54,879 bases of DNA from Nemertoderma westbladi (lineage: Eukaryota > Animalia > Xenacoelomorpha). Made by a program: the position numbers and the translations under genes. Each line of letters opens with the position of its first letter. The stretch's first letter is position 1. Under the pieces are notes generated by a model. It was not told the origin of the DNA. It worked only from the letters and a program-made list of their open reading frames with translations, and ran no database searches. The stretch is taken from positions 1 through 54,879 of the forward strand of contig JAUCBJ010008993.1 in assembly GCA_032718475.1 (NCBI GenBank), in the 5' to 3' direction. Shown here in pieces: positions 6,001-54,590 of this stretch.

Positions 6001-9000
6001 TGTGATGGACGGGAACGTACTGAACTACTACCCTGGATGGGCGGGAACGTACTGAACTAGTATCCTATGATGGACGGGAACGTACTGAACTAGTACCCTG
6101 TGATGGGTGGGAACGTACTGAACTAGTACCCTGTGATGGGTGGGAACGTACTGAACTAGTACCCTGTGATGGGTGGGAACGTACTGAACTAGTACCCTGT
6201 GATGGGTGGAACGTACTGAACTATTAGCCTGGATGGGCGGGAACGTACTGAACTAGTACCCTGTGATGGGTGGGAACGTACTGAACTAGTACCCTGTGAT
6301 GGATGGGAACGTACTGAACTAGTACCCTGTGATGGGTGGGAACGTACTGAACTAGTACCCTGTGATGGGTGGGAACGTACTGAACTATTAGCCTGGATGG
6401 GCGGGAACGTACTGAACTAGTACCCTGTGATGGGTGGGAACGTACTGAACTATTAGCCTGGATGGGCGGGAACGTACTGAACTAGTACCCTGTGATGGGT
6501 GGGAACGTACTGAACTATTAGCCTGGATGGACGGGAACGTACTGAACTAGTACCCTGTGATGGGTGGGAACGTACTGAACTATTAGCCTGGATGGACGGG
6601 AACGTACTGAACTAGTATCCTATGATGGACGGGAACGTACTGAACTAGTACCCTGTGATGGGTGGGAACGTACTGAACTAGTACCCTGTGATGGACGGGA
6701 ACGTACTGAACTAGTAGCCTGGATGGGCGGGAACGTACTGAACTAGTACCCTGTGATGGACGGGAACGTACTGAACTACTACCCTGGATGGGCGGGAACG
6801 TACTGAACTAGTATCCTATGATGGACGGGAACGTACTGAACTAGTACCCTGTGATGGGTGGGAACGTACTGAACTATTAGCCTGGATGGGCGGGAACGTA
6901 CTGAACTAGTACCCTGTGATGGGTGGGAACGTACTGAACTATTAGCCTGGATGGACGGGAACGTACTGAACTAGTATCCTATGATGGACGGGAACGTACT
7001 GAACTAGTACCCTGTGATGGGTGGGAACGTACTGAACTATTAGCCTGGATGGGCGGGAACGTACTGAACTAGTACCCTGTGATGGACGGGAACGTAATGA
7101 ACTAGTACCCTGTGATGGGTGGGAACGTACTGAACTAGTACCCTGGATGTGTGGGAACTTACTGAACTAGTACCCTGTGATGGACGGGAACGTAGTGAAC
7201 TAGTACCCTGTGATGGACGGGAACGTACTGAACTAGTAGCCTGCATGGGCGGGAACGTACTGAACTAGTACCCTGGATGGGCGGGAACGTACTGAACTAG
7301 TACCCTGTGATGGACGGGAACGTACTGAACTAGTAGTCTGTGATGGGCGGGAATGTACTGAACTAGTACCCTGTGATGGACGGGAACGTACTGAACTAGT
7401 ACCCTGTGATGGGTGGGAACGTACTGAACTACTACCCTGTGATGGGTGGGAACGTACTGAACTAGTACCCTGTGATGGGTGGGAACTTACTGATCTAGTA
7501 CCCTGTGATGGACGGGAACGTACTGAACTAGTAGCCTGGATGGGCGGGAACGTACTGAACTAGTACCCTGTGATGGGTGGGAACGTACTGAACTAGTAGC
7601 CTGGATGGGCGGGAACATACTGAACTAGTACCCTGTGATGGGTGGGAACGTACTGAACTAGTACCCTGTGATGGACGGGAACGTACTGAACTAGTAGCCT
7701 GGATGGGCGGGAACGTACTGAACTAGTACCCTGTGATGGGTGGGAACGTACTGAACTGTAGCCTGGATGGGCGGGAACGTACTGAACTAGTAGCCTGGAT
7801 GGGCGGGAACGTACTGAACTAGTACCCTGTGATGGGTGGGAACGTACTGAACTAGTAGCCTGTGATGGGTGGGAACTTACTGATCTAGTACCCTGTGATG
7901 GACGGGAACGTACTGAACTAGTAGCCTGGATGGGCGGGAACGTACTGAACTAGTACCCTGTGATGGGTGGGAACTTACTGATCTAGTACCCTGTGATGGA
8001 CGGGAACGTACTGAACTAGTAGCCTGGATGGGCGGGAACGTACTGAACTAGTACCCTGTGATGGGTGGGAACGTACTGAACTAGTACCCTGGATGGGCGG
8101 GAACGTACTGAACTAGTACCCTGTGATGGGTGGGAACGTACTGAACTAGTACCCTGTGATGGGTGGGAACGTACTGAACTAGTACCCTGTGATGGGCGGG
8201 AACGTACTGAACTAGTACCCTGTGATGGGCGGGAACGTACTGAACTAGTACCCTGTGATGGACGGGAACGTACTGAACTACTACCCTGGATGGGCGGGAA
8301 CGTACTGAACTAGTATCCTATAATGGACGAGAACGTACTGAACTAGTACCCTGTGATGGGTGGGAACGTACTGAACTATTAGCCAGGATGGGCGGGAACG
8401 TACTGAACTAGTACCCTGTGATGGACGGGAACGTAATGAACTAGTACCCTGTGATGGGTGGGAACGTACTGAACTAGTACCCTGTGATGGGTGGGAACGT
8501 ACTGGACTAGTACCCTGTATGGGCGGGAACTTACTGAACTAGTAGCCTGCATGGGCGGGAACGTACTGAACTAGTACCCTGGATGGGCGGGAACTTACTG
8601 AACTTGTACCATTTTGGGCGGGAACGTACTGAACTAGTACCCTGGATGGGCGGGAACTTACTGAACTTGTACCATTTTGGGCGGGAACGTACTGAACTAG
8701 TACCCTGGATGGTGGGAACGTACTGAACTAGTACCCTGTGATGGGTGGGAACGTACTGGACTAGTACCCTGTGATGGGTGGGAACGTACTGAACTAGTAG
8801 CCTGCATGGGCGGGAACGTACTGAACTAGTACCCTGGATGGGCGGGAACTTACTGAACTTGTACCATTTTTGGCGGGAACGTACTGAACTAGTACCCTGG
8901 ATGGGCGGGAACGTACCGGACTACTACCCTGGATGGGTGGGAACGTACTGAACTAGTACCATGGATGGGCGGGAACGTACTGGACTAGTACCCTGGATGG

Positions 9001-12000
9001 TGGGAACGTACTGAACTAGTACCCTGTGATGGGCTGGAACGTACTGAACTAGTACCCTGTGATGGGTGGGAACGTACTGGACTAGTACCCTGTGATGGGT
9101 GGGAACGTACTGGACTAGTACCCTGGATGGGCGGGAACGTACTGAACTAGTACCCTGTGATGGGTGGGAACGTACTGAACTAGTACCCTGGATGGGCGGG
9201 AACTTACTGAACTAGTACCCTGGATGGTGGGAACGTACTGAACTAGTACCCTGTGATGGGCTGGAACGTACTGAACTAGTACCCTGTGATGGACGGGAAC
9301 GTACTGAACTAGTAGCCTGGATGGGCGGGAACGTACTGAACTAGTACCCTGTGATGGACGGGAACGTACTGAACTAGTAGCCTGGATGGGCGGGAACGTA
9401 CTGAACTTGTACCCTGTGATGGGTGGGAACGTACTGAACTAGTACCCTGGATGGACGGGAACGTACTGAACTAGTAGCCTGGATGGGCGGGAACGTACTG
9501 AACTAGTACCCTGTGATGGGCGGGAACGTACTGAACTAGTACCCTGTGATGGGTGGGAACGTACTGGACTAGTACCCTGTGATGGGTGGGAACGTACTGG
9601 ACTAGTACCCTGGATGGGCGGGAACGTACTGAACTAGTACCCTGTGATGGGTGGGAACGTACTGAACTAGTACCCTGTGATGGGCTGGAACGTACTGAAC
9701 TAGTACCCTGTGATGGGTGGGAACGTTCTGGACTAGTACCCTGTGATGGGTGGGAACGTACTGGACTAGTACCCTGGATGGGCGGGAACTTACTGAACTA
9801 GTAGCCTGCATGGGCGGTAACGTACTGAACTAGTACCCTGGATGGGCGGGAACTTACTGAACTAGTACCCTGTGATGGGTGGGAACGTACTGAACTATTA
9901 GCCTGGATGGGCGGGAACGTACTGAACTAGTACCCTGTGATGGACGGGAACGTAATGAACTAGTACCCTGTGATGGGTGGGAACGTACTGAACTAGTACC
10001 CTGTGATGGGTGGGAACGTACTGGACTAGTACCCTGGATAGGCGGGAACTTACTGAACTAGTAGCCTGCATGGGCGGGAACGTACTTAACTAGTACCCTG
10101 GATGGGCGGGAACTTACTGAACTTGTACCATTTTGGGCGGGAACGTACTGAACTAGTACCCTGGATGGGCTGGAACGTACTGAACTAGTACCCTGGATGG
10201 TGGGAACGTACTGAACTAGTACCCTGGATGGTGGGAACGTAATGAACTAGTACCCTGGATGGGCGGGAACGTACTGAACTAGCACCCTGGATGGGCGGGA
10301 ACGTACTGAACTAGCACCCTGGATGGGCGGAAACGTACTGAACTAGTACCCTGTGATGGGTGGGAACGTACTGAACTAGTACCCTGTGATGGGTGGGAAC
10401 GTACTGAACTAGTACCCTGTGATGGGTGGGAACGTACTGAACTAGTACCCTGTGATGGGTGGGAACGTACTGAACTAGTACCCTGGATGGCGGGAACGTA
10501 CTGGACTAGTACCCTGGATGGGCTGGAACGTACTGAACTAGTACCCTGGATGGCTGCAACGTACTGAACTAGTACCCTGTGATGGGATGGAACGTACTGA
10601 ACTAGTACCCTGGATGGGCGGGAACTTACTGAACTTGTACCATTTTGGGCGGGAACGTACTGAACTAGTACCCTGGATGGGCGGGAACTTACTGAACTTG
10701 TACCATTTTGGGCGGGAACGTACTGAACTAGTACCCTGGATGGTGGGAACGTACTGAACTAGTACCCTGTGATGGGTGGGAACGTACTGGACTAGTACCC
10801 TGTGATGGGTGGGAACGTACTGAACTAGTAGCCTGCATGGGCGGGAACGTACTGAACTAGTACCCTGGATGGGCGGGAACTTACTGAACTTGTACCATTT
10901 TGGGCGGGAACGTACTGAACTAGTACCCTGGATGGGCGGGAACGTACCGGACTACTACCCTGGATGGGTGGGAACGTACTGAACTAGTACCATGGATGGG
11001 CGGGAACGTACTGGACTAGTACCCTGGATGGTGGGAACGTACTGAACTAGTACCCTGTGATGGGCTGGAACGTACTGAACTAGTACCCTGTGATGGGTGG
11101 GAACGTACTGGACTAGTACCCTGTGATGGGTGGGAACGTACTGGACTAGTACCCTGGATGGGCGGGAACGTACTGAACTAGTACCCTGTGATGGGTGGGA
11201 ACGTACTGAACTAGTACCCTGGATGGGCGGGAACTTACTGAACTAGTACCCTGGATGGTGGGAACGTACTGAACTAGTACCCTGTGATGGGCTGGAACGT
11301 ACTGAACTAGTACCCTGTGATGGACGGGAACGTACTGAACTAGTAGCCTGGATGGGCGGGAACGTACTGAACTAGTACCCTGTGATGGACGGGAACGTAC
11401 TGAACTAGTAGCCTGGATGGGCGGGAACGTACTGAACTTGTACCCTGTGATGGGTGGGAACGTACTGAACTAGTACCCTGGATGGACGGGAACGTACTGA
11501 ACTAGTAGCCTGGATGGGCGGGAACGTACTGAACTAGTACCCTGTGATGGGCGGGAACGTACTGAACTAGTACCCTGTGATGGGTGGGAACGTACTGGAC
11601 TAGTACCCTGTGATGGGTGGGAACGTACTGGACTAGTACCCTGGATGGGCGGGAACGTACTGAACTAGTACCCTGTGATGGGTGGGAACGTACTGAACTA
11701 GTACCCTGTGATGGGCTGGAACGTACTGAACTAGTACCCTGTGATGGGTGGGAACGTTCTGGACTAGTACCCTGTGATGGGTGGGAACGTACTGGACTAG
11801 TACCCTGGATGGGCGGGAACTTACTGAACTAGTAGCCTGCATGGGCGGTAACGTACTGAACTAGTACCCTGGATGGGCGGGAACTTACTGAACTAGTACC
11901 CTGTGATGGGTGGGAACGTACTGAACTATTAGCCTGGATGGGCGGGAACGTACTGAACTAGTACCCTGTGATGGACGGGAACGTAATGAACTAGTACCCT

Positions 12001-15000
12001 GTGATGGGTGGGAACGTACTGAACTAGTACCCTGTGATGGGTGGGAACGTACTGGACTAGTACCCTGGATAGGCGGGAACTTACTGAACTAGTAGCCTGC
12101 ATGGGCGGGAACGTACTTAACTAGTACCCTGGATGGGCGGGAACTTACTGAACTTGTACCATTTTGGGCGGGAACGTACTGAACTAGTACCCTGGATGGG
12201 CTGGAACGTACTGAACTAGTACCCTGGATGGGCTGGAACGTACTGAACTAGTACCCTGGATGGTGGGAACGTACTGAACTAGTACCCTGGATGGTGGGAA
12301 CGTAATGAACTAGTACCCTGGATGGGCGGGAACGTACTGAACTAGCACCCTGGATGGGCGGGAACGTACTGAACTAGCACCCTGGATGGGCGGAAACGTA
12401 CTGAACTAGTACCCTGTGATGGGTGGGAACGTACTGAACTAGTACCCTGTGATGGGTGGGAACGTACTGAACTAGTACCCTGTGATGGGTGGGAACGTAC
12501 TGAACTAGTACCCTGTGATGGGTGGGAACGTACTGAACTAGTACCCTGGATGGCGGGAACGTACTGGACTAGTACCCTGGATGGGCTGGAACGTACTGAA
12601 CTAGTACCCTGGATGGCTGCAACGTACTGAACTAGTACCCTGTGATGGGATGGAACGTACTGAACTAGTACCCTGGATGGGCGGGAACTTACTGAACTTG
12701 TACCATTTTGGGCGGGAACGTACTGAACTAGTACCCTGGATGGGCGGGAACTTACTGAACTTGTACCATTTTGGGCGGGAACGTACTGAACTAGTACCCT
12801 GGATGGTGGGAACGTACTGAACTAGTACCCTGTGATGGGTGGGAACGTACTGGACTAGTACCCTGTGATGGGTGGGAACGTACTGAACTAGTACCCTGCA
12901 TGGGCGGGAACGTACTGAACTAGTACCCTGGATGGGCGGGAACTTACTGAACTTGTACCATTTTGGGCGGGAACGTACTGAACTAGTACCCTGGATGGGC
13001 GGGAACGTACCGGACTACTACCCTGGATGGGTGGGAACGTACTGAACTAGTACCATGGATGGGCGGGAACGTACTGGACTAGTACCCTGGATGGTGGGAA
13101 CGTACTGAACTAGTACCCTGTGATGGGCTGGAACGTACTGAACTAGTACCCTGTGATGGGTGGGAACGTACTGGACTAGTACCCTGTGATGGGTGGGAAC
13201 GTACTGGACTAGTACCCTGGATGGGCGGGAACGTACTGAACTAGTACCCTGTGATGGGTGGGAACGTACTGAACTAGTACCCTGGATGGGCGGGAACGTA
13301 CTGAACTAGTACCCTGGATGGTGGGAACGTACTGAACTAGTACCCTGTGATGGGCTGGAACGTACTGAACTAGTACCCTGTGATGGACGGGAACGTACTG
13401 AACTAGTAGCCTGGATGGGCGGGAACGTACTGAACTAGTACCCTGTGATGGACGGGAACGTACTGAACTAGTAGCCTGGATGGGCGGGAACGTACTGAAC
13501 TTGTACCCTGTGATGGGTGGGAACGTACTGAACTAGTACCCTGGATGGGCGGGAACGTACTGAACTAGTAGCCTGGATGGGCGGGAACGTACTGAACTAG
13601 TACCCTGTGATGGGCGGGAACGTACTGAACTAGTACCCTGTGATGGGTGGGAACGTACTGGACTAGTACCCTGTGATGGGTGGGAACGTACTGGACTAGT
13701 ACCCTGGATGGGCGGGAACGTACTGAACTAGTACCCTGTGATGGGTGGGAACGTACTGAACTAGTACCCTGTGATGGGCTGGAACGTACTGAACTAGTAC
13801 CCTGTGATGGGTGGGAACGTTCTGGACTAGTACCCTGTGATGGGTGGGAACGTACTGGACTAGTACCCTGGATGGGCGGGAACTTACTGAACTAGTAGCC
13901 TGCATGGGCGGTAACGTACTGAACTAGTACCCTGGATGGGCGGGAACTTACTGAACTAGTACCCTGTGATGGGTGGGAACGTACTGAACTATTAGCCTGG
14001 ATGGGCGGGAACGTACTGAACTAGTACCCTGTGATGGACGGGAACGTAATGAACTAGTACCCTGTGATGGGTGGGAACGTACTGAACTAGTACCCTGTGA
14101 TGGGTGGGAACGTACTGGACTAGTACCCTGGATAGGCGGGAACTTACTGAACTAGTAGCCTGCATGGGCGGGAACGTACTTAACTAGTACCCTGGATGGG
14201 CGGGAACTTACTGAACTTGTACCATTTTGGGCGGGAACGTACTGAACTAGTACCCTGGATGGGCTGGAACGTACTGAACTAGTACCCTGGATGGTGGGAA
14301 CGTACTGAACTAGTACCCTGGATGGTGGGAACGTAATGAACTAGTACCCTGGATGGGCGGGAACGTACTGAACTAGCACCCTGGATGGGCGGGAACGTAC
14401 TGAACTAGCACCCTGGATGGGCGGAAACGTACTGAACTAGTACCCTGTGATGGGTGGGAACGTACTGAACTAGTACCCTGTGATGGGTGGGAACGTACTG
14501 AACTAGTACCCTGTGATGGGTGGGAACGTACTGAACTAGTACCCTGTGATGGGTGGGAACGTACTGAACTAGTACCCTGGATGGCGGGAACGTACTGGAC
14601 TAGTACCCTGGATGGGCTGGAACGTACTGAACTAGTACCCTGGATGGCTGCAACGTACTGAACTAGTACCCTGTGATGGGATGGAACGTACTGAACTAGT
14701 AGCCTGGATGGGCAGGAACGTACTGAACTAGCACCCTGGATGGGTGGGAACCTACTGAACTAGTACCCTGGATGGGCGGGAGCGTACTGGACTAGTAACC
14801 TGTGATGGGCTGGAACGTACTGAACTAGTACCCTGGATGGGCGGGAACGTACTGGACTACTACCCTGGATGGGCGGGAACGTACTGAAATAGTACCCTGG
14901 ATGGGCGGGAACGTACTGAACTAGTACCCTGGATGGACGGGAACGTACTGTACTAGTACCTTGGATGGGCGGGAACGTACTGAACTAATACCCTGTGATG

Positions 15001-16005
15001 GGCTGAAACGTACTGAACTAGTATCCTGTGATGGGTGGGAACTTACTAAACTAGTACCCTGTGATGGGCGGGAACGTACTGAACTAGTACCCTGGATGGG
15101 CGGGAACGTACTGAACTAGTACCCTGGATGGGCGGGAACGTACTGGACTAGTACCCTGGATGGGCGGGAACGTACTGGACTAGTACCATGTGTTGGGCTG
15201 GAACGTACTGAACTAGTACCCTGTGATGGGCGGGAACGTACTGGACTAGTACCCTGTGATGGGCGGGAACGTACTGAACAAGTACCCTGGATGGGTGGGA
15301 ACGTACTGGACTAGTACCCGGTGTTGGGCGGGAACGTACTGAACTAGTACCCTGGATCGGCGGGAACGTACTGGACTAGTACTCTGTGATGGGCTGGAAC
15401 GTACTGAACTAGTACCCTGGATGGGAGGGAACGTACTGAACTAGTACCCTGTGATGGACGGGAACGTCCTGAACTAGTACCCTGGATGGGCGGGAACGTA
15501 CTGAACTAGTACCCTGGATGGGCGGGAACGTACTGAACTAGTACCCAGGATGGGCGGGAACGTACCGGACTACTACCCTGGATGGGTGGGAATGTACTGA
15601 ACTAGTACCCTGTGATGGGTGGGAACGTACTGAACTAGTACCCTGTGATGGGTGGGAACTTACTGAACTAGTACCCTGTGATGGGTGGGAACGTACTGAA
15701 CTAGGACCCTGGATGGGCGGGAACGTGCTGAACTAGTACCCTGTCATGGGTGGGAACTTACTGAACTAGTACCCTGGATGGGCGGGAACGTACTGAACTA
15801 GTACCCTGTGATGGGTGGGAACGTACTGAACTAGTACCCTGTGATGGGTGGGAACTTACTGAACTAGTACCCTGTGATGGGCGGGAACGTACTGAACTAG
15901 TACCCTGTGATGTGTGGGAACGTACTGAACTAGTACCCTGGATGGGAGGGAACGTACTGAACTAGTACCCTGGATGGGCGGGGACGTACTGAACTAGTAG
16001 CCTGA
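1..16005. repeat. Tandem satellite/minisatellite array of 33/32/31-bp monomers with higher-order repeats; runs off the left edge of the window
   Basis: Monomers GAACTAGTACCCTGTGATGGGTGGGAACGTACT (33 bp) and GAACTAGTACCCTGGATGGGCGGGAACGTACT (32 bp), plus 31-bp variants. Identical ORFs recur at 9586/11617/13680 and near-identical ones at 89/4276. Confidence 0.99.
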
Positions 16006-21955: not shown

Positions 21956-22024
21956 GTAGGTGTGTAGGTACCGTTAACCTAATTTGAATTTACTTCAATT
22001 GTCAATTGCTTTTTCTTCATCCAG
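21956..22024 (+). other. Putative 5'-UTR intron of GANAB
   Basis: GTAGGT donor, CCTAAT branch site, TTTTCTTCATCCAG acceptor 13 nt before the ATG. A further acceptor (poly-T...CTGTCAG) ends at 21905. Confidence 0.5.
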
Positions 22025-22037
22025 GCCACAGGCCATC

Positions 22038-24977
22038 ATGGTTATTATGATTCCGCGATTCTCATTTATCGTTTTCTCTTCATTCTTAATTTGCTCGCCA
22101 CTTTTCGCCGTCGACAAATCAAACTTTAAAACCTGCGAACAAAGTGGTTTCTGTAAACGGCATCGTGCTATCCCGCCCAACGAATCACCCTACGTCGCTC
22201 ACATAGACAACGCAGTGGTTACCCGATACGGTTTCTACGTTCCGCTAGAGAACAAAGTGAGTAACATTGTGCTAAACCTAACCGTTACAGGACTGGAGGG
22301 GCCCGCGTTCAGAGTTCGGATAGACGAGTTTATGCCGTTACGGCCTCGATACGAACCCGAAGATGTTCTTGTTCGCGATCCTATTAAACGTCGAACTGAG
22401 TTCGAGAAGAATTCCCCGACTCGCGCGACGCTTACTATGAACCGGTACAAGGTGATTCTATACGGGGATCCTTTCTCGCTGTCAATTCTGGAGGCCAACG
22501 AGGCTGTTATGACGATAAACTCCCGAGGTTTATTTAAGTTCGAGCATTCGCGAGTACGAGGGGCGTCTAGGACGGTCTCCGAATCGGAGACCTCTAGTGG
22601 GGGAGCGGTGCAATGGTTAAAGGATAAAATATATGGGAGTGAGAAAGAGGGAGACGAGGGGAGCGAGGTGGGAGAAGGGAGCGAAGTAGTAGAGGAGGAG
22701 GTGGGAACACCGGAGGTTGTAGATGAGGTTAATGAAACTCCTACAGACACAGTAGAAGAGCCTGACCAATGGGAGGAGACCTTTAAGTCTCACACAGACT
22801 CCAAACCGAACGGGCCGACTTCCGTTGGGCTGGACGTCAACTTTATGGGTTTCCGAAACGTCTACGGAATCCCGGAGCACGCCGATTCACTGTCGCTACG
22901 GACAACCACCGGCGGCGACCCCTACCGACTCTACAACCTCGACGTGTTTGAGTACGAGGTTAACAACCCGATGGCCTTGTACGGCTCCATCCCGTTTATG
23001 ATCGGCCACAGCGTGCGGCACAGTCTCGGCCTGTTCTGGCTGAACGCGGCCGAGACTTGGGTCGACATCGAACGCTCCGAGGATTCCGCCTCCATCCTGT
23101 CCCGGGTGGCCAGCGCGGTAACGGGTTCGACCCCGGGGGGCGCTGGCGTCCCTTCAGTAGCGACCCATTGGTTCAGCGAGTCAGGGATTATCGACATGTT
23201 CGTACTGCTGGGCCCGCAACCTCGCCAGGTGTTCCGGCAGTACGCGGTGCTCACCGGAACCGCACCGGTGCCGCCGCTGTTTGCCATCGCCTACCACCAG
23301 TGCCGGTGGAACTACATCGACCAGACGGACGTCGCGGAAGTCAACGAGAACTTCGACGTTCACGACATCCCGTGCGACGTGATCTGGTTGGACATCGACC
23401 ACACGGACGGACGGCGCTACTTAACCTGGGATTCCCGGAAGTTTCCGGAGCCGGAAGCGATGATCGCGAACGTGTCGCGTTGCGGACGCCGGATGGTGAC
23501 CCTGGTGGACCCGCACATAAAGAAGGACTCCGGGTACAAAGTCTACCAAGAGTCGTCGGCGCAGAACGGGTTCCTCGTGCGGAACAAGGACGGAACGCCG
23601 TACGAGAACTGGTGCTGGCCCGGAACCTCCATCTGGTTGGACTACATCAACCCAGCGGTGCGTCAATGGTGGGCCTCCTTGTTCTCCACTAATTACTATA
23701 AAGGTTCAACTCTGGATTTATTTACTTGGAACGATATGAATGAACCGAGCGTGTTTAACGGGCCGGAAGTGACCATGCACAAGGACGCGGTGCACCACGG
23801 GGGTTGGGAACACCGGGACGTTCACAACCTGTATGGAATGGCGATGCAGCGGGCCACGGCGGAGGGGCTGGTGCAACGGAGCGGCGGGAAGCTGCGACCC
23901 TTCGTACTGAGTCGCGCCTTCTACGCGGGCAGCCAGCGGTACGGGGCCGTGTGGACGGGGGACAACTCGGCCACCTGGGAGCACCTCGCGCTCACAGGGC
24001 CCATGCTGCTCGCGATCGGGGTCGCGGGAGTGCCGCTGGCCGGCGCCGACGTCGGGGGGTTCTTCGGCAACCCCGAGGAGGAGCTGCTGGTCCGCTGGTA
24101 CCAGGCCGCCGCCTACCAGCCCTTCTTCCGGGCCCACGCGCACCACGACACGCGGCGTCGGGAGCCCTGGACGCTGCGAGAGGCGGCCAATAGGGAGCGA
24201 GTCCGCGCCGCTATACGGGCGCGCTACGCCCTGCTGCCCTACTGGTACACGACGTTCTACCGGAACCACGCGAGCGGGGACCTAGTGATGCGCCCCCTAT
24301 GGGCCGAGTTCCCCGACGATTCGAAGACCTTCGATATGGACCGCGCCTGGATGGTGGGGCCCGCCTTGCTGGTTCAACCAGTAGTCGCTAAGGGCGTCAC
24401 GCAGGTCTCCGTCTACCTCCCCGGTGTCCATAAAACTATTTGGTACGACGCCGCGAACTGGATTAGTTACACCTCCCCGACGACGGTTGTTTACCCTGTC
24501 ACTATGGATACCGTTCCGTTGTTTATTAAGGGAGGAACGATTGTTCCGAGTCGCGAGCGCGTGCGGCGTTCCTCCGCGTTGGGGCTCGAGGATCCGTTCA
24601 CGTTGTTGGTCGCGTTGAACGCGGCTGGGTTCGCCGTGGGGGAGGTCTACATGGACGACGGACGCACGACGGCCAACGTGGTGGACGATCGCTACTCGTT
24701 GCGTAGTCTGCGGTTCGGTGCGGGCGCGTTGCGGTGCGTGTCCGGGGACGGGGGGCGGGGCGTGGGCGAGTTCGGGGCCCCCGTAGAGCGGGTCGTCATC
24801 CTGGGAGTGGGCGCGGCTCCCAGGGGAGTCACCGTGTCCCTGTTGGGAGCCGACGGGGCCGCCAAGCCGTCCAGCTCCCAGCTGGAGTTCGAGTACTTGG
24901 GAGGGACTAAGGCGGTGATCGTGAGGAAGCCTTGGGTGTCTATTGGGGCCGACTGGGAGCTGCGGTTAGTCTCGTAG
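22038..24977 (+). CDS. GANAB: Neutral alpha-glucosidase AB / ER glucosidase II alpha subunit (GH31), single coding exon
   Basis: Signal peptide followed by VDKSNFKTCEQSGFCKRHR; PYRLYNLDVFEY; HQCRWNY; catalytic WNDMNEPS and WTGDN; FFRAHAH. First in-frame ATG is 22038 (the ORF track uses an upstream TTG). Confidence 0.97.
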   Translation: MVIMIPRFSFIVFSSFLICSPLFAVDKSNFKTCEQSGFCKRHRAIPPNESPYVAHIDNAVVTRYGFYVPLENKVSNIVLNLTVTGLEGPAFRVRIDEFMPLRPRYEPEDVLVRDPIKRRTEFEKNSPTRATLTMNRYKVILYGDPFSLSILEANEAVMTINSRGLFKFEHSRVRGASRTVSESETSSGGAVQWLKDKIYGSEKEGDEGSEVGEGSEVVEEEVGTPEVVDEVNETPTDTVEEPDQWEETFKSHTDSKPNGPTSVGLDVNFMGFRNVYGIPEHADSLSLRTTTGGDPYRLYNLDVFEYEVNNPMALYGSIPFMIGHSVRHSLGLFWLNAAETWVDIERSEDSASILSRVASAVTGSTPGGAGVPSVATHWFSESGIIDMFVLLGPQPRQVFRQYAVLTGTAPVPPLFAIAYHQCRWNYIDQTDVAEVNENFDVHDIPCDVIWLDIDHTDGRRYLTWDSRKFPEPEAMIANVSRCGRRMVTLVDPHIKKDSGYKVYQESSAQNGFLVRNKDGTPYENWCWPGTSIWLDYINPAVRQWWASLFSTNYYKGSTLDLFTWNDMNEPSVFNGPEVTMHKDAVHHGGWEHRDVHNLYGMAMQRATAEGLVQRSGGKLRPFVLSRAFYAGSQRYGAVWTGDNSATWEHLALTGPMLLAIGVAGVPLAGADVGGFFGNPEEELLVRWYQAAAYQPFFRAHAHHDTRRREPWTLREAANRERVRAAIRARYALLPYWYTTFYRNHASGDLVMRPLWAEFPDDSKTFDMDRAWMVGPALLVQPVVAKGVTQVSVYLPGVHKTIWYDAANWISYTSPTTVVYPVTMDTVPLFIKGGTIVPSRERVRRSSALGLEDPFTLLVALNAAGFAVGEVYMDDGRTTANVVDDRYSLRSLRFGAGALRCVSGDGGRGVGEFGAPVERVVILGVGAAPRGVTVSLLGADGAAKPSSSQLEFEYLGGTKAVIVRKPWVSIGADWELRLVS

Positions 24978-26367: not shown

Positions 26368-26767
26368 GGTACGCAGCAAACTTCCCCCGCGAGAAAGCTT
26401 CGCCCGAGCAATCTTCGCCCTAAAAATGAGCAACTATCGCCCGGCGGAAACCTTCGCCCGCAGTCAATCTTCGCCCGCGAGCAACCTTCGCCCAATAAAC
26501 AATTATTGTTTTGGATAGAAAAAGCCCTCTCAGTAACCGGCTCCTTTCCCTCAATTACTAACACCACCGTTTATTGTTTTGGTTAGAAAAAGCAGTCTCT
26601 GTAACCTGCTCCTTTCCCTCAATTTGTTACTAAAATGGCTACTAACACAAATCGTATTGGGCGAAGGTTGCTCGCGGGCGAAAATTATCCTTGCGGGCTG
26701 AAGGTTGTCCCCGGGCGAAGATAAGACGCGGGCGAAGGTTGTACGCGGGCGAAGATTGCGCCCAACC
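26368..26767. mobile_element. MITE with long internally repetitive inverted repeats and an 8-bp TSD (Merlin-like)
   Basis: CGCAGTAC duplicated at 26360-26367 and 26768-26775. Termini GGT...ACC. Arrays of CTTCGCCC on the left mirror GGGCGAAG on the right. Confidence 0.85.
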
Positions 26768-29303: not shown

Positions 29304-29311
29304 CCGCTCCC
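29304..29311 (-). promoter_or_regulatory. Polypurine-tract-like plus-strand primer site
   Basis: Sense strand GGGAGCGG immediately before the TGT of the 3' LTR. Confidence 0.6.
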
Positions 29312-36161: not shown

Positions 36162-37514
36162 TGCCTCTGCCACCTTCCTTTCAAGACACTGTCCAAGTCT
36201 AATTTTGTTTGTACAGTTGAATGCCTACTGCTATATTACAGTTAAAGCAAGTCTAGTAATTCAGTATCACTGCTAGCCTAGTAATTAATTACCGATACTG
36301 CTACTCAGTGTAGCGTGATATATATAATATATTAGAATACCGGTATGCTTATAGTATATATAAGTATTATTACAGACTAGGTTTATCACAGAATACCAGT
36401 ATAATTTTAGCACAAATATATATAAATATATAATAGGCCTATCGGGAATACCAGTATACAGCTTACAGCTTGTAGTATATATAAGTATAATTCTGTACTA
36501 GAATTAATTACAAGTACCGGTATAATTTCAGCCGAAATTTATAGAAATAAAGATAATAGGCCTATCGTAAATACCGGTATATCAATTATTTTAAATAATT
36601 GAATTTCTGAATTTTAGGGTTACTTTGTTACTTTACTTACTTTATTACCGTTATTCGAGCAGTAGTCCAACTGATATTGAGACCTAATGGTTGTATGGTA
36701 GGCCTACTATTTATAAATCGTTAGATTTGATTTATAATATATATATACCCGTTTTAATGGGTTTTGTCAATGTTTGAAATAAATGTTATTATTTCTGGGG
36801 AGTAATCACTACACAAAGCGGTGCGCTTTCAGTGAAGTGTTACTTATAGGACACTAAAACAAATAATACTAATTTACCTAAGTTACTTAATACTACAAAT
36901 TACGTACAATTCGGGTGAGATTACAATCTCTAAATAAACACAAAAATTTACAAAAAACACAAAATACGAATTTTCAGGGTAATTTTAAAAGAAGTCTACA
37001 AACCAGCCTAACAAAGGGTTAGAATCTGGTTATTACAACGGACAGGGTACTACGGTATTTGAAAATAATAAGTAGTAGTAAAATACACTGCGTTGTCCAG
37101 ATAGGAAAATACCACCGCCTGACGACCTATAGCCGTATCGCTATAGGTACTACGTTATGTATCACGGAGTGTCCCTACCTAGAAGTTAATAGAGCTAATC
37201 GAACGTGCCTATCAACCAGTTTACAACACAAATATAATGCCTACACTAATTACTTTCGGAAAGCACTGTACACTAAACCCTAAATTAGGTACGAGTACTT
37301 GTACAACATATAATCAGTAGTTAAATATACTTGAACAGCTAAAAGAACCACGGCATCTGCTGGAGTGACCGATGCACAAAATCACCAGTCTTTACCTACG
37401 CCAAGCAGCCCGTGTAGTACCGGGGTTAATTTAACTATAGCGGTATGTATAACAAACACAATTACTGTAGGAACAAACTTGGGGAATGAATGTTGCGAAT
37501 AATCGCATAAACTC

Positions 37515-38100
37515 TGAATAATAAATATTACGCTACGCGTACAAACCACTCAAACAAAATGCAGACCAAATACTGACAGACTACTATCAAGCCTAAATAA
37601 ACTACAGGACATGCAGACTCCGAAATGATTAGGTAGTATGCGTTCTAACCCAGTAGTACGACTTATTCTTTAGTTGGGGGTTTACCTTACAGTATTTGCT
37701 GCCCCTACTTCCTAACCGTTCTTTATCGGACAGGTGATCTACACACACTGCAATCCGTTCAGACCTAATAACAGCCAGACAACTATCCAGCCTACAAATT
37801 ATCTAAATAAATATTATACGCTACCCGTACAGACTTACACAAACAAAGTACAGACTAAACGATGGCAGACTACTCTCAAGCCTAAATAAACTACAGGACA
37901 TGCAGACTCCGAAATGATTAGGTAGTATGCGTTCTAACCCAGTAGTACGACTTATTCTTTAGTTGGGGGTTTACCTTACAGTATTTGCTGCCCCTACTTC
38001 CTAACCGTTCTTTATCGGACAGGTGATCTACACACACTGCAATCCGTTCAGACCTAACAGCAATCAGACAACAGCTCAGCCTACAAATTGTCTGTACAAT
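37515..38100. repeat. 289-bp tandem duplication in the 5' leader of BEL element 1
   Basis: AAGCCTAAATAAACTACAGGACATGC at 37589 and 37878, with about 200 bp of identical core. Confidence 0.9.
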
Positions 38101-38267
38101 CTGATCAGGCTTACACGCCTTCTGTTCAATACTGGCCTACAAACAAATAAAACCGACAGAAACAAGTAAAATCTCAATAAAAAACCAGGGCGGCCGTTCC
38201 CTGATTAAGTACTAAGACCTACCGGTATATAACTATCAAATTCGAATAATACTAATGTACTTATACT

Positions 38268-38420
38268 GGAAGTACCGGTTAGGACAGTTGGGCCTACGGA
38301 CCTACAGAAGTACCGGTTCTGGCAGTTGGACCTACGGACCTACAGCAGTACCGGTTCTGGCAGTTGGGCCTACTGACCTACAGAAGTACCGGTTCAGGTT
38401 TACCGGTCAACCGGTACTTT
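38268..38420. repeat. ~38-bp tandem repeat (about 3.5 copies) at the start of the leader of BEL element 1
   Basis: GAAGTACCGGTTCTGGCAGTTGG(G/A)CCTACGGACCTACA; almost identical copy at about 53107-53260. Confidence 0.9.
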
Positions 38421-38450
38421 CAACTTTATTGCTTACTGCAATAAAGAAGC

Positions 38451-38462
38451 TATATCCGTTAT
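38451..38462 (-). promoter_or_regulatory. Non-tRNA primer-binding site of element 1, complementary to its own LTR
   Basis: Sense ATAACGGATATA abuts the 5' LTR and is the exact reverse complement of the sense sequence at 39204-39215. Confidence 0.8.
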
Positions 38463-39698
38463 TGTTCGCGCTTTCAGACCTTTGGCAGTTTAACCCGCCA
38501 AATTAGGATGTCTTCTAGATAATAAATCACCTTTTGCCTATGACAAGTATTTAATTCACTACACTAGTCGAAACCAATCTGTGCGCGATCATTCACCCGC
38601 TGGATATACCCGGGAGATTGGGTTCGACGGCTTAATCTTATTGCTATGTAAGCTTAATGTATTATCCGACTGACAGTATTATATAATCTCTGACAATATT
38701 ATTCACCTTCGGGGAATATTAACAGTTCCTTTAGGACGTGGCTCTCTATCTATATAAACAGAGTTATGACTTAAACTACTCACAACGATATGGCTTAAGT
38801 TATAATTCACATATATGGCGCATTCTTTAGGAAATGCTTCGTTATCAGTCTCACTCATACACAATGCTGCACAATACTGCACACTGATCTGCCGATCTTC
38901 ACTGATTTTAGTTATATATAAAAGGAACACGGACTGACTCATGTAGGGTCTATCAAATAACATTAGATTCACTTCAAACCACTTTAACATAAGTCACAAT
39001 CGTTATATGTAACCTTTCTCTCTTACCTTCGGTATATCAAGAATATTGGGTTTCGGGGTTATTTATCGTTATTCCAAATATAATAATTCATCAACCATAT
39101 TATGAAGAACTGACAGTAAATAGCAGTATAACAATATGAAGTATGCACAAGTTGTTTGATTAGGTATGGTATGTTATGTTGTGATAAATGCAGTTTTGTT
39201 ATGATAACGGATATATGTCCTTATAATTAAGCCTACTAGTGTAGGGCTAAAGCCGTTCTTCCTGGCTTAGAATCACCAACAACACTAAAAACTGATAAGA
39301 ATAACTATAAGAATACCAGCTACCCTTATTCTACAAAGATCTCACCCACCACAGAGAATGAGCATACAGATAGGAAATTCAGTTCAGTAGATCTGTGATA
39401 GGTCAAAATCAAAACCAACTCAAATCCTATTGGCAGATACAGAAGGCAGGGCTATGGGGCAACGTGGCAATATCAGCCGTTAGCCGTCGTCATGGTAGCG
39501 ACACTGTTTTCAAGAGTATCGAGCTTTTACGTCACGAAATTGCAGATTATGTCCTCTAAAGTACAAATACAGAAGAAATGGCTTTTATGTCCTCCAAAAC
39601 ACCAGTACAGCAAGGACACGGCCTTTTTATGCCTGGTAAACCAACCACAGAGTACTTTACGGGGATAATAACCGGCTAATTACGCAAAAGCTTTTACA
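38463..39698 (-). repeat. 5' LTR of BEL element 1 (1236 bp)
   Basis: Direct repeat of 28079-29303 with 10-bp and 1-bp indels. Confidence 0.95.
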
Positions 39699-43571: not shown

Positions 43572-43843
43572 GCTGCACGAAGGCCCCACGCAAATTCTAC
43601 TTGGAAAATTTTCAAACTTTTGCCAAACAACATGTGTACCAAGTTTGGATAGATTTCATCAAGGGTTGGCCGAGTTATTAACGTTTAAAATAAAATACTG
43701 AAAAAAAACGCGACAGAACGACAGAACGACAGGTTGATTAATGGTACCACTACGCTAAGGCTCTCTCACTTCGTGGCTCGCCCCACAGGTTGATTAATGG
43801 TACCACTACGCTAAGGCTCACTCACTTCGTGGCTCGCCCCACA
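43572..43843 (-). mobile_element. Helentron/DINE-1-like non-autonomous repeat with a duplicated ~57-bp end
   Basis: Reverse complement of 45488-45690. CAGGTTGATTAATGGTACCACTACGCTAAGG...CGCCCCA occurs twice in tandem. Confidence 0.7.
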
Positions 43844-44950
43844 GTACCATTTTAATTATCCATGGATACAATTACGATTACAAATTACGATACAAAATAC
43901 GATTTTTCGATTCTATGGAATAGGAGGCCTTAACCCACCACATTGTATTTCATGTGGACGCAAATATCTTTAAATTTCCTGAGCTAAACATGAGAGTTTT
44001 ATTTTATGTGGGGATGCAATATAACTTTAAATAATATAATCAATCCAGTTTAGAAGTGAGTAAAAAGTATATTATTTCTTAAACAAATTATTTATCATTA
44101 TTATTATTATATTACAAGAAAACATTAGAACAAAGTAAACATTATTACAAATCGTGATACAATTTATTGTATGCAATTAAAAAATAAAGTGCAAACTAAC
44201 TATGGTCAACTAATTAAACGCGGGAATTTTAAAACGTAGATTATCAATGTTTGACGTAGGCCAACTGCAGTAAACTGTGTTCATGTGTACTGTTGGTGGA
44301 GGGAGAGCAGCAGAGGCGGGTGTTATACAGTTATACGTACTTCAGTATCAGTACTCTACTCAGGTACTGACTGCTTATGTTTCACTGTTTGTGCAGCTTG
44401 CAATTAGTTAGTGACAAATTACTATTCTGCCATTAGCAGATTAGGTAACCATACTAGCCAGTCTACGGTCTACCGGCAGACCGGTACCTTGTTTCTTGTT
44501 AGGCCTATTCTTCTAGACTCAAAACAAAACTTTATCTGCGGACCGTGGTAGTGCAACTGATTAACTGTCCTTTATCCTGTTTTATCTGTTTTTATAACAA
44601 TTTTCCCAGGTAATCCTGTCATTGCGGTACAGCGGTTGTGCGGTATATCGTAAAATTTTTGTTGTAGTCAGTAGTAGTATCTGTAGATCTGAGTACTGGA
44701 GTATAGTACGTAGTCGTTATTAGGTACTATTCAGGTACAGGTACAATTCCATAATACTGTAATATTTCGTGTTCGCTATTCAGTGTGTCCAGTCCATGAA
44801 CTCGAGGCTTATCAAAAAGCCATCAGCTATCATAAGCCTTAAAAGTATTGCATTGTTTGGACTGTCTGCCTGTAGTAGGACGCTAGTTTGTACTGTTATA
44901 AAGCTGTAATCGTGAAATGTGCAGCACTGTAGTAGTCTTTCAGTTTATCG

Positions 44951-45310
44951 ATGAATGTGATGATGGCTTCGAAAGCAATCTGTATAACAAACTTATGGAC
45001 TAAATGCCGATTGAATCTGTCTGGCCAACTATTAAGCAGAATCTACCCGTCCAGAAGTTTGAGTAGAACTGTTCCGCGGTCGACTCCCATGCACGTTCCT
45101 ATGCCATACGTGCTGGAACAAACGCAATTCGGCGAACGCGCCTACGACCTGTACTCGAGACTACTGAAGGACCGTATAGTCTGCCTTATGGGACCGGTTA
45201 GCGACTCCCTATCAAATACTGTCGTCGCCCAGTTGCTGTTTCTCCATTCGGAAAGCGCAAAGAAACCGATCCATTTGTACATAAATAGTCCCGGGGGTGT
45301 TGTATCCCAG
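44951..45310 (+). CDS. clpP: First coding exon of mitochondrial ATP-dependent Clp protease proteolytic subunit; downstream exons not in this window
   Basis: Arg/Ser-rich transit peptide, then [30 protein letters not shown]...[21 protein letters not shown]. Donor GTAAGG at 45311. Confidence 0.93.
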
Positions 45311-45487
45311 GTAAGGTCGTAGAATATCAGCTCAGTACTGTAAGTTGGATGTATAGGCCTACACATTTACACGATTTCATTAATTACATACGTAACTTAA
45401 TAACATTAGATGCTACGGCAATAATTGTTATTGCAACATTGGATGGGACAGAGCAAAATATTATTCATTGTTCATGTGCATTTTCTT

Positions 45488-45690
45488 GTGGGGCGAGCCA
45501 CGAAGTGAGTGAGCCTTAGCGTAGTGGTACCATTAATCAACCTGTCGTTCTGTCGTTCTGTCGCGTTCAATTTTAAACGTTAATAACTCGGCCAATCTTT
45601 GATGAAATCTACCCAAACTTGGTACACATGTTGTTTGGCAAAAGTTTAGAAATTTTCCAAGTAGAATTTCCGTGTGGCCTTCGAGAAGCT
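45488..45690 (+). mobile_element. Helentron/DINE-1-like non-autonomous repeat in the clpP intron
   Basis: GTGGGGCGAGCCACGAAGTG...(CTGTCGTT)n...TAATAACTCGG...CCAAACTTGGTACAC. Confidence 0.7.
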
Positions 45691-46117: not shown

Positions 46118-46169
46118 AGTACTCTGCGTTGATACCACTGCTTAAGCAGTGGTATCAACGCAGAGTACT
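46118..46169. other. Library adapter dimer (SMART / PacBio ultra-low-input amplification adapter); assembly artefact
   Basis: Perfect 52-bp palindrome AGTACTCTGCGTTGATACCACTGCTT + AAGCAGTGGTATCAACGCAGAGTACT. Confidence 0.98.
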
Positions 46170-51082: not shown

Positions 51083-52384
51083 GTTTAGCTATACAGTTGA
51101 ATGCTTACTGCTATAGTTACAGTTAAAGCAAGTCTAGTAATTCAGTATGACCGTTGGCCTAGTACCGGTAATTTATTGCAGTATTAGAATACCGGTATGC
51201 GCTTATAATATATATATAAGTATTGTAAACTAGGTTTGTCACAGAGTACCGGTATATAATTTTAGCACAAATATATATAAATATATAATAGGCCTATCGC
51301 GAATACCGGTATACAGCTTACACTTATAGTATATATAAGTATAATTATGAACTAGAATTAATTACAGAATACCGGTATGATTTCAGCTCAAATTTATAGA
51401 AATAAATATAATAAGCCTATGGTAAATACCGGTATGTCAATTATTTTAGAATAATTGATTTTCTGAATATTTTAGGGTTACTTGGTTAGACTAACTTACT
51501 TTGTTACCGTTATTTAAGCAGTAGTTCAACTGATTTTGAGACCTAGTTGTTGTATGGCAGGCCTACTATTTATAAATCGTTTGAGTTGATTTATAATAGA
51601 TATATACCCGTTTAAAATGGGTTTTTTCAATATTCAAAATAAATGTTATTATTTCTGGGGGAGTCACTTACACAGAAGCTGTGCGCTCTCAGTGAAGTGC
51701 TATTTATTGGACAATAAAACAGATAATTCTAATTTACCTAAGTTACTTAATACTACAAATTACGTACGATACGGGTGAGATTAAATCTCTAATTAAACAC
51801 AACAAAAATATTACGTACGAATTTTTAGGGTAATTTTACAGGAAGTCTACAAACCAGTCTAACAAAGGGTTAGAATTTCTGGTTATTACTTCGGACAGGA
51901 TACTACGGTATTTGAAAATAATAAGTAGTAGTAAATACACTGCGTTGTCCAGATAGGAAAATACCACCGCCTGACGACCTATAACCGTATCGCTATAGGT
52001 ACTACGTTATGTATCACGGAGTGTTCCTACCTAGAAGTTAATTACCGCGGACTACCAGATCCAGCGTGCCTATTAACCACTTTACAACACAAATATACTG
52101 CCTACACACTAATTACTTCGGAAAGCACTGTACACTAAACCCTAAATTAGGTACAAGTACTGGTACAACAAATAATCAGTAGTTAAATATACTTGAACAG
52201 TTAAAAGAACCACGGCATCTGCTGGAGTGACCAGAGCACAAAGTCACCAGTCTTGTCCTACGCCAAGCAGCCCGTGTAGTACCGGGGTTAATTTAACTAT
52301 AACGGTATGTATAACAAACACAATTACTGTAGGAATAAACTTGGGGACATGAATGTTGCGAATAATCGCATAAACTCTGAATAA

Positions 52385-52940
52385 TAAATATTACGCTACC
52401 CGTACAGAATACTCAAACAAAATACAAACCAAACGCTGGCAGACTACCACCAAGCCTAAATAAACTACTGTATGTGCAGATTCCAAAACGGTTAGTTAGT
52501 ATGCGTTCTAACACGGTAGTACGACTTATTCTTTAAGAGGGGATTGACCTTACAGCTATGGCTGCCCCAACTTACTAACTGGCACTTTATCAGACAAACT
52601 CTACACAAGCAGCAATCTCTTCAGACCTAATAATAGTTAGACAACAATCCAGCCTACAAAATATCTGAGTAATAACTATTACGGTACCACACAGTCCAAA
52701 GAGCTGGCAGAATACTGTCAAGCCTAAATAAACTACAGTATGTGCAGATTCCAAAATTGTTAGTTAGTATGCGTTCTAACACGGTAGTACGACTTATTCT
52801 TTAAGAGGGGATTGACCTTACAGCTATGGCTGCCCCAACTTACTAACTGGCACTCTATCGGACAAACTCTACACACGCCGTAATCTCTCCAAACCCAACA
52901 ACAATCCGACAACAGTCCGGCCTACAATTATCTGAACAAT
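52385..52940. repeat. 268-bp tandem duplication in the 5' leader of BEL element 2
   Basis: AAGCCTAAATAAACTAC at 52452 and 52720. Confidence 0.88.
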
Positions 52941-53288
52941 CTGAGCAGACTTACACGTCTTCAGCTCAATATTAACTTACTAGGAAATAAAACTGACAGA
53001 AATAGACCTAAGTAAAATCCCAATAAAAACCAGGCGTCCCCGATTTAATATCGAGACCTACCGGTATACAATAATCAAAATCGAATAATACTAATGTACT
53101 TATACTGGAAGTACCGGTTAGGACAGTTGGGCCTACGGACCTACAGAAGTACCGGATCTGGCAGTTGGACCTACGGACCTACAGCAGTACCGGTTCTGGC
53201 AGTTGGGCCTACTGACCTACCGAAGTACCGGTTCAGGTTTACCGGTCGACCGGTACTTTCAACTTTATTGCTTACTGCAATAAAGTCA

Positions 53289-53299: not shown

Positions 53300-54590
53300 T
53301 GTACGCGCTTTTGAAGACCTTTAGCAGTTTAACCTGCCAAAATTTATATGTCTTTTGGTTTATAAATATACTTTAGAAGATGACAAATATTTAATACCAA
53401 TAAACACAACATTAGCAGAAGCCAGCCTAGTGCGCGTCCATTCACCCGCTGGATATTCCCGGGAGACTGGATTCTGAGGGCTTAGATTATTATTGCAGTG
53501 TAAGCTTACTGTACTGTATTATTCGATTGATCGTTAATAATTAATTTCTGACTAATATTATTCACTTTCGGGAAATATTAACAGTTCCTTTAGGACGTGG
53601 CGCTCTATCTAAATAAACAGAGATATGACTTATACTAATCACAACGGTAAGTCGGTAAGGCTTAAGATTCACGTATGAGGCGCATTCTTTAGGAAATGCT
53701 TAGTTATCAATCACAATCATGCACACTACCGGTAACACACAATACTGCTCACTAATTTGCCGACCGTCAATGAATTTTATCATATATAGAGCGAACAGCA
53801 ACGGACCAATGTAGTGCTTATCAAATAGCATTAAATTCACTACATACACAATAATATAAGTCGCAATCGCTATATACAGTATAACCCGTCTCTCTAACCT
53901 GTAGTGTATCAAGAAAATTGGGAAATTTGGGTTCTTTATATATGTTCTCCAAATAATATTCAACCAAAACACAACAGTGAATAGCAGTATAATAATGTAT
54001 GTTGAACCGATAAGTATCAAACAAAGTATAATAAGATAAGTGAATTGTTAAGTTATGATATGAATTGAATTGATGTGCATTGATAACAGTCATACGCTCT
54101 ATAATTTAAGCCTACTAATGTTTCTTCTAAAAGTATGAAACGAATTGACTCTAGAGCCGTTGTTCCTGGCCTAGATAGCAATAACAAAGTATCAAGAAAA
54201 AACAGTAAGACTGAACACTCTCCTTATGATCGACCGAAAAGCTACACGTCGACAGGAAAAATCGCTCTGATTGGCTCAAGCCAAACAAAGAACCATGCGT
54301 CCAATGGCTGTTTCCATGTCAGCAACCAGCTGTTAGATGTCGTAATATGAATCATCAGGGCTAAGCTGTGAAAGGTATTTGTCGCATTGCAGGTTTTTTG
54401 CCTTACCATGTCCGCTAAAACACGTATATAGCAGAATGACTTTTATGTCCGTTAAAACACCTGTAACGGTACCTTGCGGGCGAGGGGAATATATATACAG
54501 TTAGAGAACCCTTTTAGAGTATTCCAGCGCCTGGGGGGAAACTGGATTGCGAAGCAAAAGGGCCAGTTATATCCCACAGAAGCTTTTACA
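53300..54590 (-). repeat. 5' LTR of BEL element 2 (1291 bp)
   Basis: Diverged homologue of the element 1 LTRs; sense termini TGTAAAAG...CGCGTACA. Confidence 0.9.

Follow-up and report, generated by a model that had tools for sequence, protein, structure and literature searches.

In the retrotransposon Tf1, the initial 11 bases in the element's own RNA prime reverse transcription, with RNase H cutting between bases 11 and 12 (PMC7175516). The Tf1 'pretzel' consists of three duplexes, in which both regions flanking the primer-binding site (PBS) pair with sequence of the long terminal repeat (LTR), and TATA boxes are predicted for Tf1-type yeast elements (bioRxiv 2022.12.06.519325). Tf1 is the sole element with demonstrated self-priming, which is inferred for its relatives in Ty3/gypsy and for some Ty1/copia lineages of plants (PMC7175516, PMC4600332, PMC6317226); Tj1 is a Tf1-related self-priming element (PMC4600332), and self-primers are predicted for Tcn1 and TAR (PMC6317226). 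For BEL/Pao elements, the ICTV describes a site of 18 nt complementary to tRNA-Arg or tRNA-Gly, as well as a replication cycle that is poorly understood (PMC8742986). This site is part of the ICTV description of known members and not of the phylogenetic definition of BEL/Pao. A literature search that took in PMC5443660, PMC6934838 and PMC8220671 among other texts, with subscription journals, Repbase, GyDB and supplements outside its scope, found no report of self-priming in BEL/Pao, and the words PBS and tRNA are absent from the Sinbad paper and from the survey by de la Chaux and Wagner (PMC3118150, PMC554778).

We compared these systems with two elements, E1 and E2, that lie on the reverse strand of a 54,879-nt stretch of the Nemertoderma westbladi genome (assembly GCA_032718475.1, contig JAUCBJ010008993.1), which we call the window (Table 1). 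As in Tf1 and Tf2 of Schizosaccharomyces pombe, Tj1 and Tf1/sushi elements, the PBS of E1 and E2 directly follows the CA of the LTR, pairs with an 11-nt stretch of that LTR and has no tRNA match. Unlike the Tf1/sushi elements, which are Ty3/gypsy chromoviruses, E1 and E2 encode BEL/Pao proteins; a Ty3/gypsy chromovirus pol is not found in them, and the comparison with Tf1/sushi concerns mechanism only.

Table 1 Features of E1 and E2 in the window
Feature	Positions	Strand	Details
E1 5' LTR	39698-38463	-	1236 nt, TG...CA; edge backed by depth step and loose contig ends
E1 predicted self-primer, TATATCCGTTAT	39215-39204	-	12 nt; 11-nt core 39214-39204
10-nt segment	39194-39203	-	in E1 5' LTR, absent from 3' LTR
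Stem 5' arm	38588-38583	-	predicted 6 bp with LTR end 38471-38466
ATTAAA, candidate poly(A) signal	38550-38555	-	93 nt from LTR end (96 nt in E2)
Predicted hairpin near LTR end	38481-38502	-	present in both elements, with G-U swaps
E1 PBS, ATAACGGATATA	38462-38451	-	offset 0 from LTR end, no TGG
E1 leader	36225-38450	-	about 2.2-2.3 kb
Predicted 9-bp leader hairpin	38424-38446	-	just past PBS; AATAAA in stem; identical in E2
E1 ORF, 1222 aa	32556-36224	-	gag, protease, RNase H tail
Extra ORF, 381 aa	29773-30918	-	between pol remnant and 3' LTR (env position)
E1 polypurine tract	29304-29311	-	ahead of 3' LTR
E1 3' LTR	29303-28079	-	1225 nt; same 12-mer at 28820-28809
E2 5' LTR	54590-53300	-	1291 nt
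E2 predicted self-primer, ATGACTGTTAT	54093-54083	-	LTR position homologous to that in E1
E2 PBS, ATAACAGTCAT	53299-53289	-	offset 0
E2 leader	51089-53288	-	about 2.2 kb
E2 ORF, 1648 aa	46142-51088	-	gag, protease, first part of BEL-type RT

Elsewhere, the window opens with a satellite array (1-16004) of about 494 copies of a 32-33-nt unit with 89% matches and higher-order periods near 2.0-2.1 kb. A stop-free, apparently intronless frame of 999 aa on the forward strand (21978-24977) resembles the glucosidase II alpha subunit (GH31), with neutral alpha-glucosidase AB as its best PDB match, and its GC content climbs from 0.46 to about 0.65 amid AT-rich surroundings. Terminal inverted repeats of 216 nt, 89% alike and about 2.1 kb apart, mark what is likely a non-autonomous DNA transposon (43572-45689), and a smaller inverted-repeat element lies at 26430-26759.

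Both elements belong to BEL/Pao, as an earlier note made from the letters of the window had proposed for E1. DUF1759 was detected in both ORFs, joined in the gag of E1 by three Cys/His knuckles and followed by a protease with the motif LLDSGS. Gag, protease, the start of RT (from E2) and the RNase H tail (from E1) align in the BEL order gag-PR-RT-RH-IN, with IN not seen. Similarity searches with the gag-to-RT region of E2 returned BEL-type proteins only; 76 of 4666 candidates passed as homologues, all of them BEL-type polyproteins, 75 with PF05380 and/or PF03564 and one with no Pfam entry listed. As in Belpaoviridae, the two elements thus combine a DUF1759 gag with Cys/His knuckles, a protease and remnants of BEL-type RT and RNase H, and the TG...CA LTRs of about 1.2 kb, the polypurine tract and the length of about 11.6 kb (E1) also agree with that family. 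Unlike the Belpaoviridae described by the ICTV, the E1/E2 family has no 18-nt site for a host tRNA 3' end and carries a long leader (about 2.3 kb) and an extra ORF. Within the leaders of E1 and E2 there are tandem duplications (290 and 270 nt) and ACCGGT palindromes that occur repeatedly. No match to the extra ORF turned up in Pfam, PHROGs or Atlas, and its region is as high-copy as the remainder of E1. Its contig depth relative to the rest of E1 was highest in run X6, so this ORF may also ride in other families.

The two copies are incomplete in different ways. In E1, an in-frame loss after the protease removed the RT and most of the RNase H. No integrase match was found in the E1 ORF, and neither of the two copies in the window has an integrase; E1, having neither RT nor integrase, would therefore need copying in trans, with the enzymes supplied by a complete family member. 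E2 occupies 54590-46142, and its protein is 76% identical to that of E1 over the common part and has about 400 additional N-terminal residues that E1 lacks. It is truncated in the middle of the RT at a perfect 26+26-nt palindrome (46118-46169), which we take to resemble a library amplification adapter, and this junction is probably an assembly artefact. The E1 family is very abundant in its host: summed contig depth in run X1 reaches hundreds of thousands over most of E1, compared with 21 for the contig spanning its 5' flank, although summed depth is not copy number. Both flank junctions of E1 occur in independent X3 contigs, and E1 is therefore real DNA. Its two LTRs align with 22 mismatches and 11 gap columns, only 4 of the 22 substitutions falling in the 484 nt upstream of the primer and 18 downstream, and we did not find a clean target-site duplication between the flanks of the 5' and 3' LTRs. 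Together, the uneven substitutions and the missing duplication suggest that E1 may be a recombinant of two copies. The sole multi-base indel between the LTRs is the 10-nt segment listed in Table 1, which starts 0-1 nt past the 3' end of the predicted primer, where the cut is predicted; this coincidence was noticed after the fact.

We found that ATAACGGATATA and TATATCCGTTAT are exact reverse complements over all 12 nt. The pairing has an offset of 0 from the LTR end, and its partner lies 483 nt from the LTR start. Shifting the start of the pairing into the LTR left only 5-6 nt, and no TGG-type site directly follows the 5' LTR in E1 or E2. The earlier note had described the same 12-nt pairing, its abrupt stop at the LTR edge and the missing TGG-type tRNA complement, and all three hold; as to the length of the primer, 12 of 12 bases pair in E1, but the unit common to E1 and E2 is the 11-nt core. 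When the E1 LTR was shuffled 5000 times with its dinucleotides preserved, 1 shuffle gave an anchored 12-mer (2 of 5000 when offsets of 0-5 were allowed), and among about 9,130 internal positions taken as mock primer sites, 2 reached 12 nt. An LTR that extended further, to a TGG-type PBS, would undo this reading, as the earlier note had pointed out. The edge at 38463 is backed by a rough doubling of summed contig depth on its LTR side (runs X1 and X3) and by loose contig ends, as X6 contigs depart from the reference at 38459-38463. Pieces spanning the LTR end and the PBS are present in two runs. Contigs aligned to a 71-nt stretch of E1 showed no base-level variants, and among the 40 differences listed, of 2178 in a 12-kb contig alignment, none lies at the PBS or the LTR site.

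The covariation check proposed in the earlier note could be made on E2, the sister element of E1. Its PBS and LTR pair over 11 of 11 nt (6 of 5000 shuffles gave a match anywhere in the LTR). Between the PBS sequences of E1 and E2, 3 of 11 bases are changed, and each change has its counterpart in the E2 LTR. The covariation evidence consists of these two elements. Both cores begin with an A that follows a T (a T|A step), and one X1 contig tracks the E1 reference for 11 nt beyond the LTR end before diverging. Identity between E1 and E2 changes from 0.49-0.57 upstream of the primer site to 0.60-0.88 downstream, as would be the case for a nearby U3/R border; the rise is steepest 80-200 nt downstream of the primer rather than at the primer itself. 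Both elements therefore carry the Tf1-type signature, in which the LTR-adjacent site matches the LTR perfectly over at least 10-11 nt. E1 and E2 likewise show the complementarity of at least 10 bp, beginning 0-5 nt past the LTR, that serves as a criterion for plant TAR (Ty1/copia) and Tcn1, from which they differ in superfamily and host, the primers being predictions in both cases (PMC6317226). The fungal GalEa elements with their Conserved Hairpin Site also have no tRNA site and a conserved hairpin by the LTR end, but lack an LTR sequence complementary to the site, which E1 and E2 have (PMC5445492).

To describe the RNA context of the site, we folded the LTR ends of E1 and E2 jointly, an analysis of two sequences only, in which 3 of 50 pairs were compensatory. 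As in Tf1, a predicted stem joins the LTR end to an upstream LTR segment. This stem, which lies outside the primer, carries a compensatory change from U-A in E1 to A-U in E2, with pair probabilities of 0.91-1.0 in E1 and 0.43-0.98 in E2; such a stem partner arose by chance in 10 and 11 of 5000 shuffles. For an E1 RNA begun at 39214, the primer duplex was predicted in all three folding windows with probabilities of 0.81-1.0 per pair, whereas in E2 it appeared in one window of three. Of the Tf1 'pretzel', the duplex of the upstream flank is predicted in these two sequences and the downstream flank is predicted to fold as a hairpin of its own; of the two flanking duplexes of Tf1, one is thus seen in E1 and E2, and their RNA start and cut are predictions. 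They also differ from the Tf1 type in having no TATA at the expected distance and in their loop of about 750-790 nt (753-794 nt).

A possible splice acceptor lies just past the PBS, its conservation being equally explained by the leader hairpin. The E1 LTR also contains a candidate intron (donor at about 39026, acceptor at about 38750). A splice-built primer in E1 and E2 was considered and rejected, the best matches being 6 and 0 nt.

We then asked how other BEL families compare. We examined 84 loci (80 of 372 from metagenomes and all 4 from a genome collection), of which 33 had a repeat flanking the RT. Twenty entered the edge test and 4 were dropped for want of a CA end, which left a scored set of 16 loci in 13 families with readable edges. 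Two of the 13 families lack a self-match and carry TGG-type sites, which were identified by motif rather than by a match to a tRNA. In another family, L008, a contiguous self-match of 10 nt lies at offset 0, a result reached in 1 of 400 null trials. In seven families (L010, L011/L014, L021, L024, L028, L067 and L082), a match of 11-15 nt appears only across the junction of an intron (GT(A/G)AG...YAG) inside the LTR, a result seen in 0 of 400 null trials for each; only 6-9 nt of this match lie on the upstream side of the junction, and 103-210 nt separate the junction from the LTR end in the scored loci, which is short beside the loop of 753-794 nt in E1 and E2. The remaining three families did not score, but two of them came near by eye, with an 11-nt match to its own 3' LTR in L074 and 10 of 11 nt in L081. 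Self-matches thus occur in 8 of 11 families that lack a TGG site and in neither of the two that have one, and the self-pairing helix in these relatives begins 0-3 nt after the LTR. L044, L063, L074 and L081 are further candidates for a match across a splice junction. A scan for self-matches after any CA yielded at least 130, compared with at least 118 for the control strand; with so much noise it was not counted and was used solely to point to L027, L044 and L063. No relatives were found among viral contigs. The BEL sequence of L081-L084, which lies within four contigs of prokaryote genome records, is most likely animal contamination of prokaryote assemblies.

In RT trees of about 400 columns, which contained BEL-type rows only and no outgroup, E2 has a long branch whose placement is unstable, and the RT of E2 is at most about 44% identical to that of any relative. 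A test of 11 self-pairing rows as a single clade against 8 others, with 14 of the 33 tree rows not used and L027 excluded for frameshifts, gave a p-AU of 0.09, which neither rejects nor demonstrates that self-pairing arose once.

Considering these data together, we think it very probable that the 11-nt LTR stretch of E1 and E2 is the primer for reverse transcription. The PBS would pair with this stretch in place of a tRNA. By analogy with Tf1, the stretch would form the 5' end of the element RNA, starting at 39214 in E1 and at 54093 in E2. This end would fold back onto the PBS, and the element's RNase H would cut after base 11 to release a fragment that primes DNA synthesis. The primer would then be re-copied into the PBS of the next generation. 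Since the PBS would be renewed from the primer in each cycle, the PBS and the LTR site would change together automatically. The core of the earlier proposal of tRNA-independent priming in a BEL lineage thus stands, supported by the matched changes in E2, the compensated LTR-end stem and the related BEL families. As far as one can read from the DNA, priming in E1 and E2 is likely to be Tf1-like and to depart from the described BEL/Pao mode. We are less sure of the full Tf1-like version, in which the E1 RNA begins at 39214, as the earlier note also proposed, and consider it somewhat favoured. The missing TATA at -30, the loop of 753-794 nt and the first exons of just 6-9 nt that a 5'-terminal primer would require in the splice-type relatives make the claim of a primer stronger than the claim of an RNA 5' end.

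The promoter signals bear directly on this second claim. In none of E1, E2 and 8 relatives was a TATA-like motif found in the interval 20-40 nt upstream of the primer. The nearest such motif in E1 lies at -11, so a start directed by it would fall downstream of the primer. A TATA-like CATAAAAG is common to E1 (39589) and E2 (54447), about 370 nt upstream of the primer. Promoter motifs therefore do not favour a primer that is the RNA 5' end. They fit better with an alternative that we regard as rather unlikely overall, in which the same LTR stretch primes without being the RNA 5' end, either excised from inside a transcript that starts upstream or provided in trans by another LTR transcript, the 3' LTR copy or a short RNA. 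The 6-9 nt on the upstream side of the junction in the seven splice-type families would be easier to understand if they lay inside a longer first exon, and Tf2 has alternative starts of which only one includes the primer (PMC5341516). Against an internal or trans-acting primer, the matches of E1 and E2 both end at 11 nt and at the T|A step, and a second cut or a stop signal would presumably be needed to hold the copied site at 11 nt.

It is improbable that the pairing is a long-range structural helix, involved in packaging, dimerisation or a translation switch, and that something else primes. Conserved helices abound here, so RNA structure is under selection, and structure alone can yield compensatory changes. 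Such a helix would leave unexplained why pairing starts with the first base past the LTR in E1 and E2 and within 0-3 nt of it in the relatives, and why it is absent from families with a TGG-type site; the element would also be left with no primer site. Priming by a host tRNA fragment or another small RNA, with the LTR match secondary, is more improbable still. According to the ICTV, tRNA-Arg or tRNA-Gly primes the family (PMC8742986), and half-tRNA primers exist in Ty1/copia lineages (PMC6317226). But the 3 of 11 differences between the E1 and E2 sites would then require two host RNAs, each of which also matched the respective LTR at the homologous position, and an Rfam search of 27900-54879 found no relic of a tRNA or structural RNA (one match, with an E value of 0.45, fell far under the cut-off). 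A chance match or an assembly artefact, for which one might cite the adapter-like palindrome and the lack of a target-site duplication in E1, can largely be dismissed in view of the shuffle results (1 and 6 in 5000 for E1 and E2) with homologous placement, the E1 flank junctions in independent contigs and the pieces with LTR end and PBS in two runs.

Self-priming by the LTR stretch in E1 and E2 may also be part of a broader pattern. We tentatively suggest, as a possibility short of an even chance, that a large undescribed part of animal BEL/Pao normally relies on self-priming, that many of these elements assemble the primer by splicing within the LTR, and that the E1/E2 family is a deep-branching, intron-free lineage whose primer is possibly cut from inside a longer RNA. 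If so, primers assembled by splicing would mean that host splicing licenses reverse transcription, and a primer cut from within a longer RNA would be a mechanism beyond that of Tf1.

E1 and E2 together yield exact predictions of the 5' ends of the RNA and of the RNA that is joined to minus-strand DNA. If the self-priming reading is true, annotation pipelines that demand a tRNA site misjudge such elements, and the RNase H of BEL elements would be able to cut an RNA-RNA duplex. A self-priming BEL family would bring the number of superfamilies with this mechanism to three and be relevant to the idea that hairpin priming predates tRNA priming (PMC3601003). It would also mean that BEL elements of this kind escape control exerted via tRNA supply or tRNA fragments.
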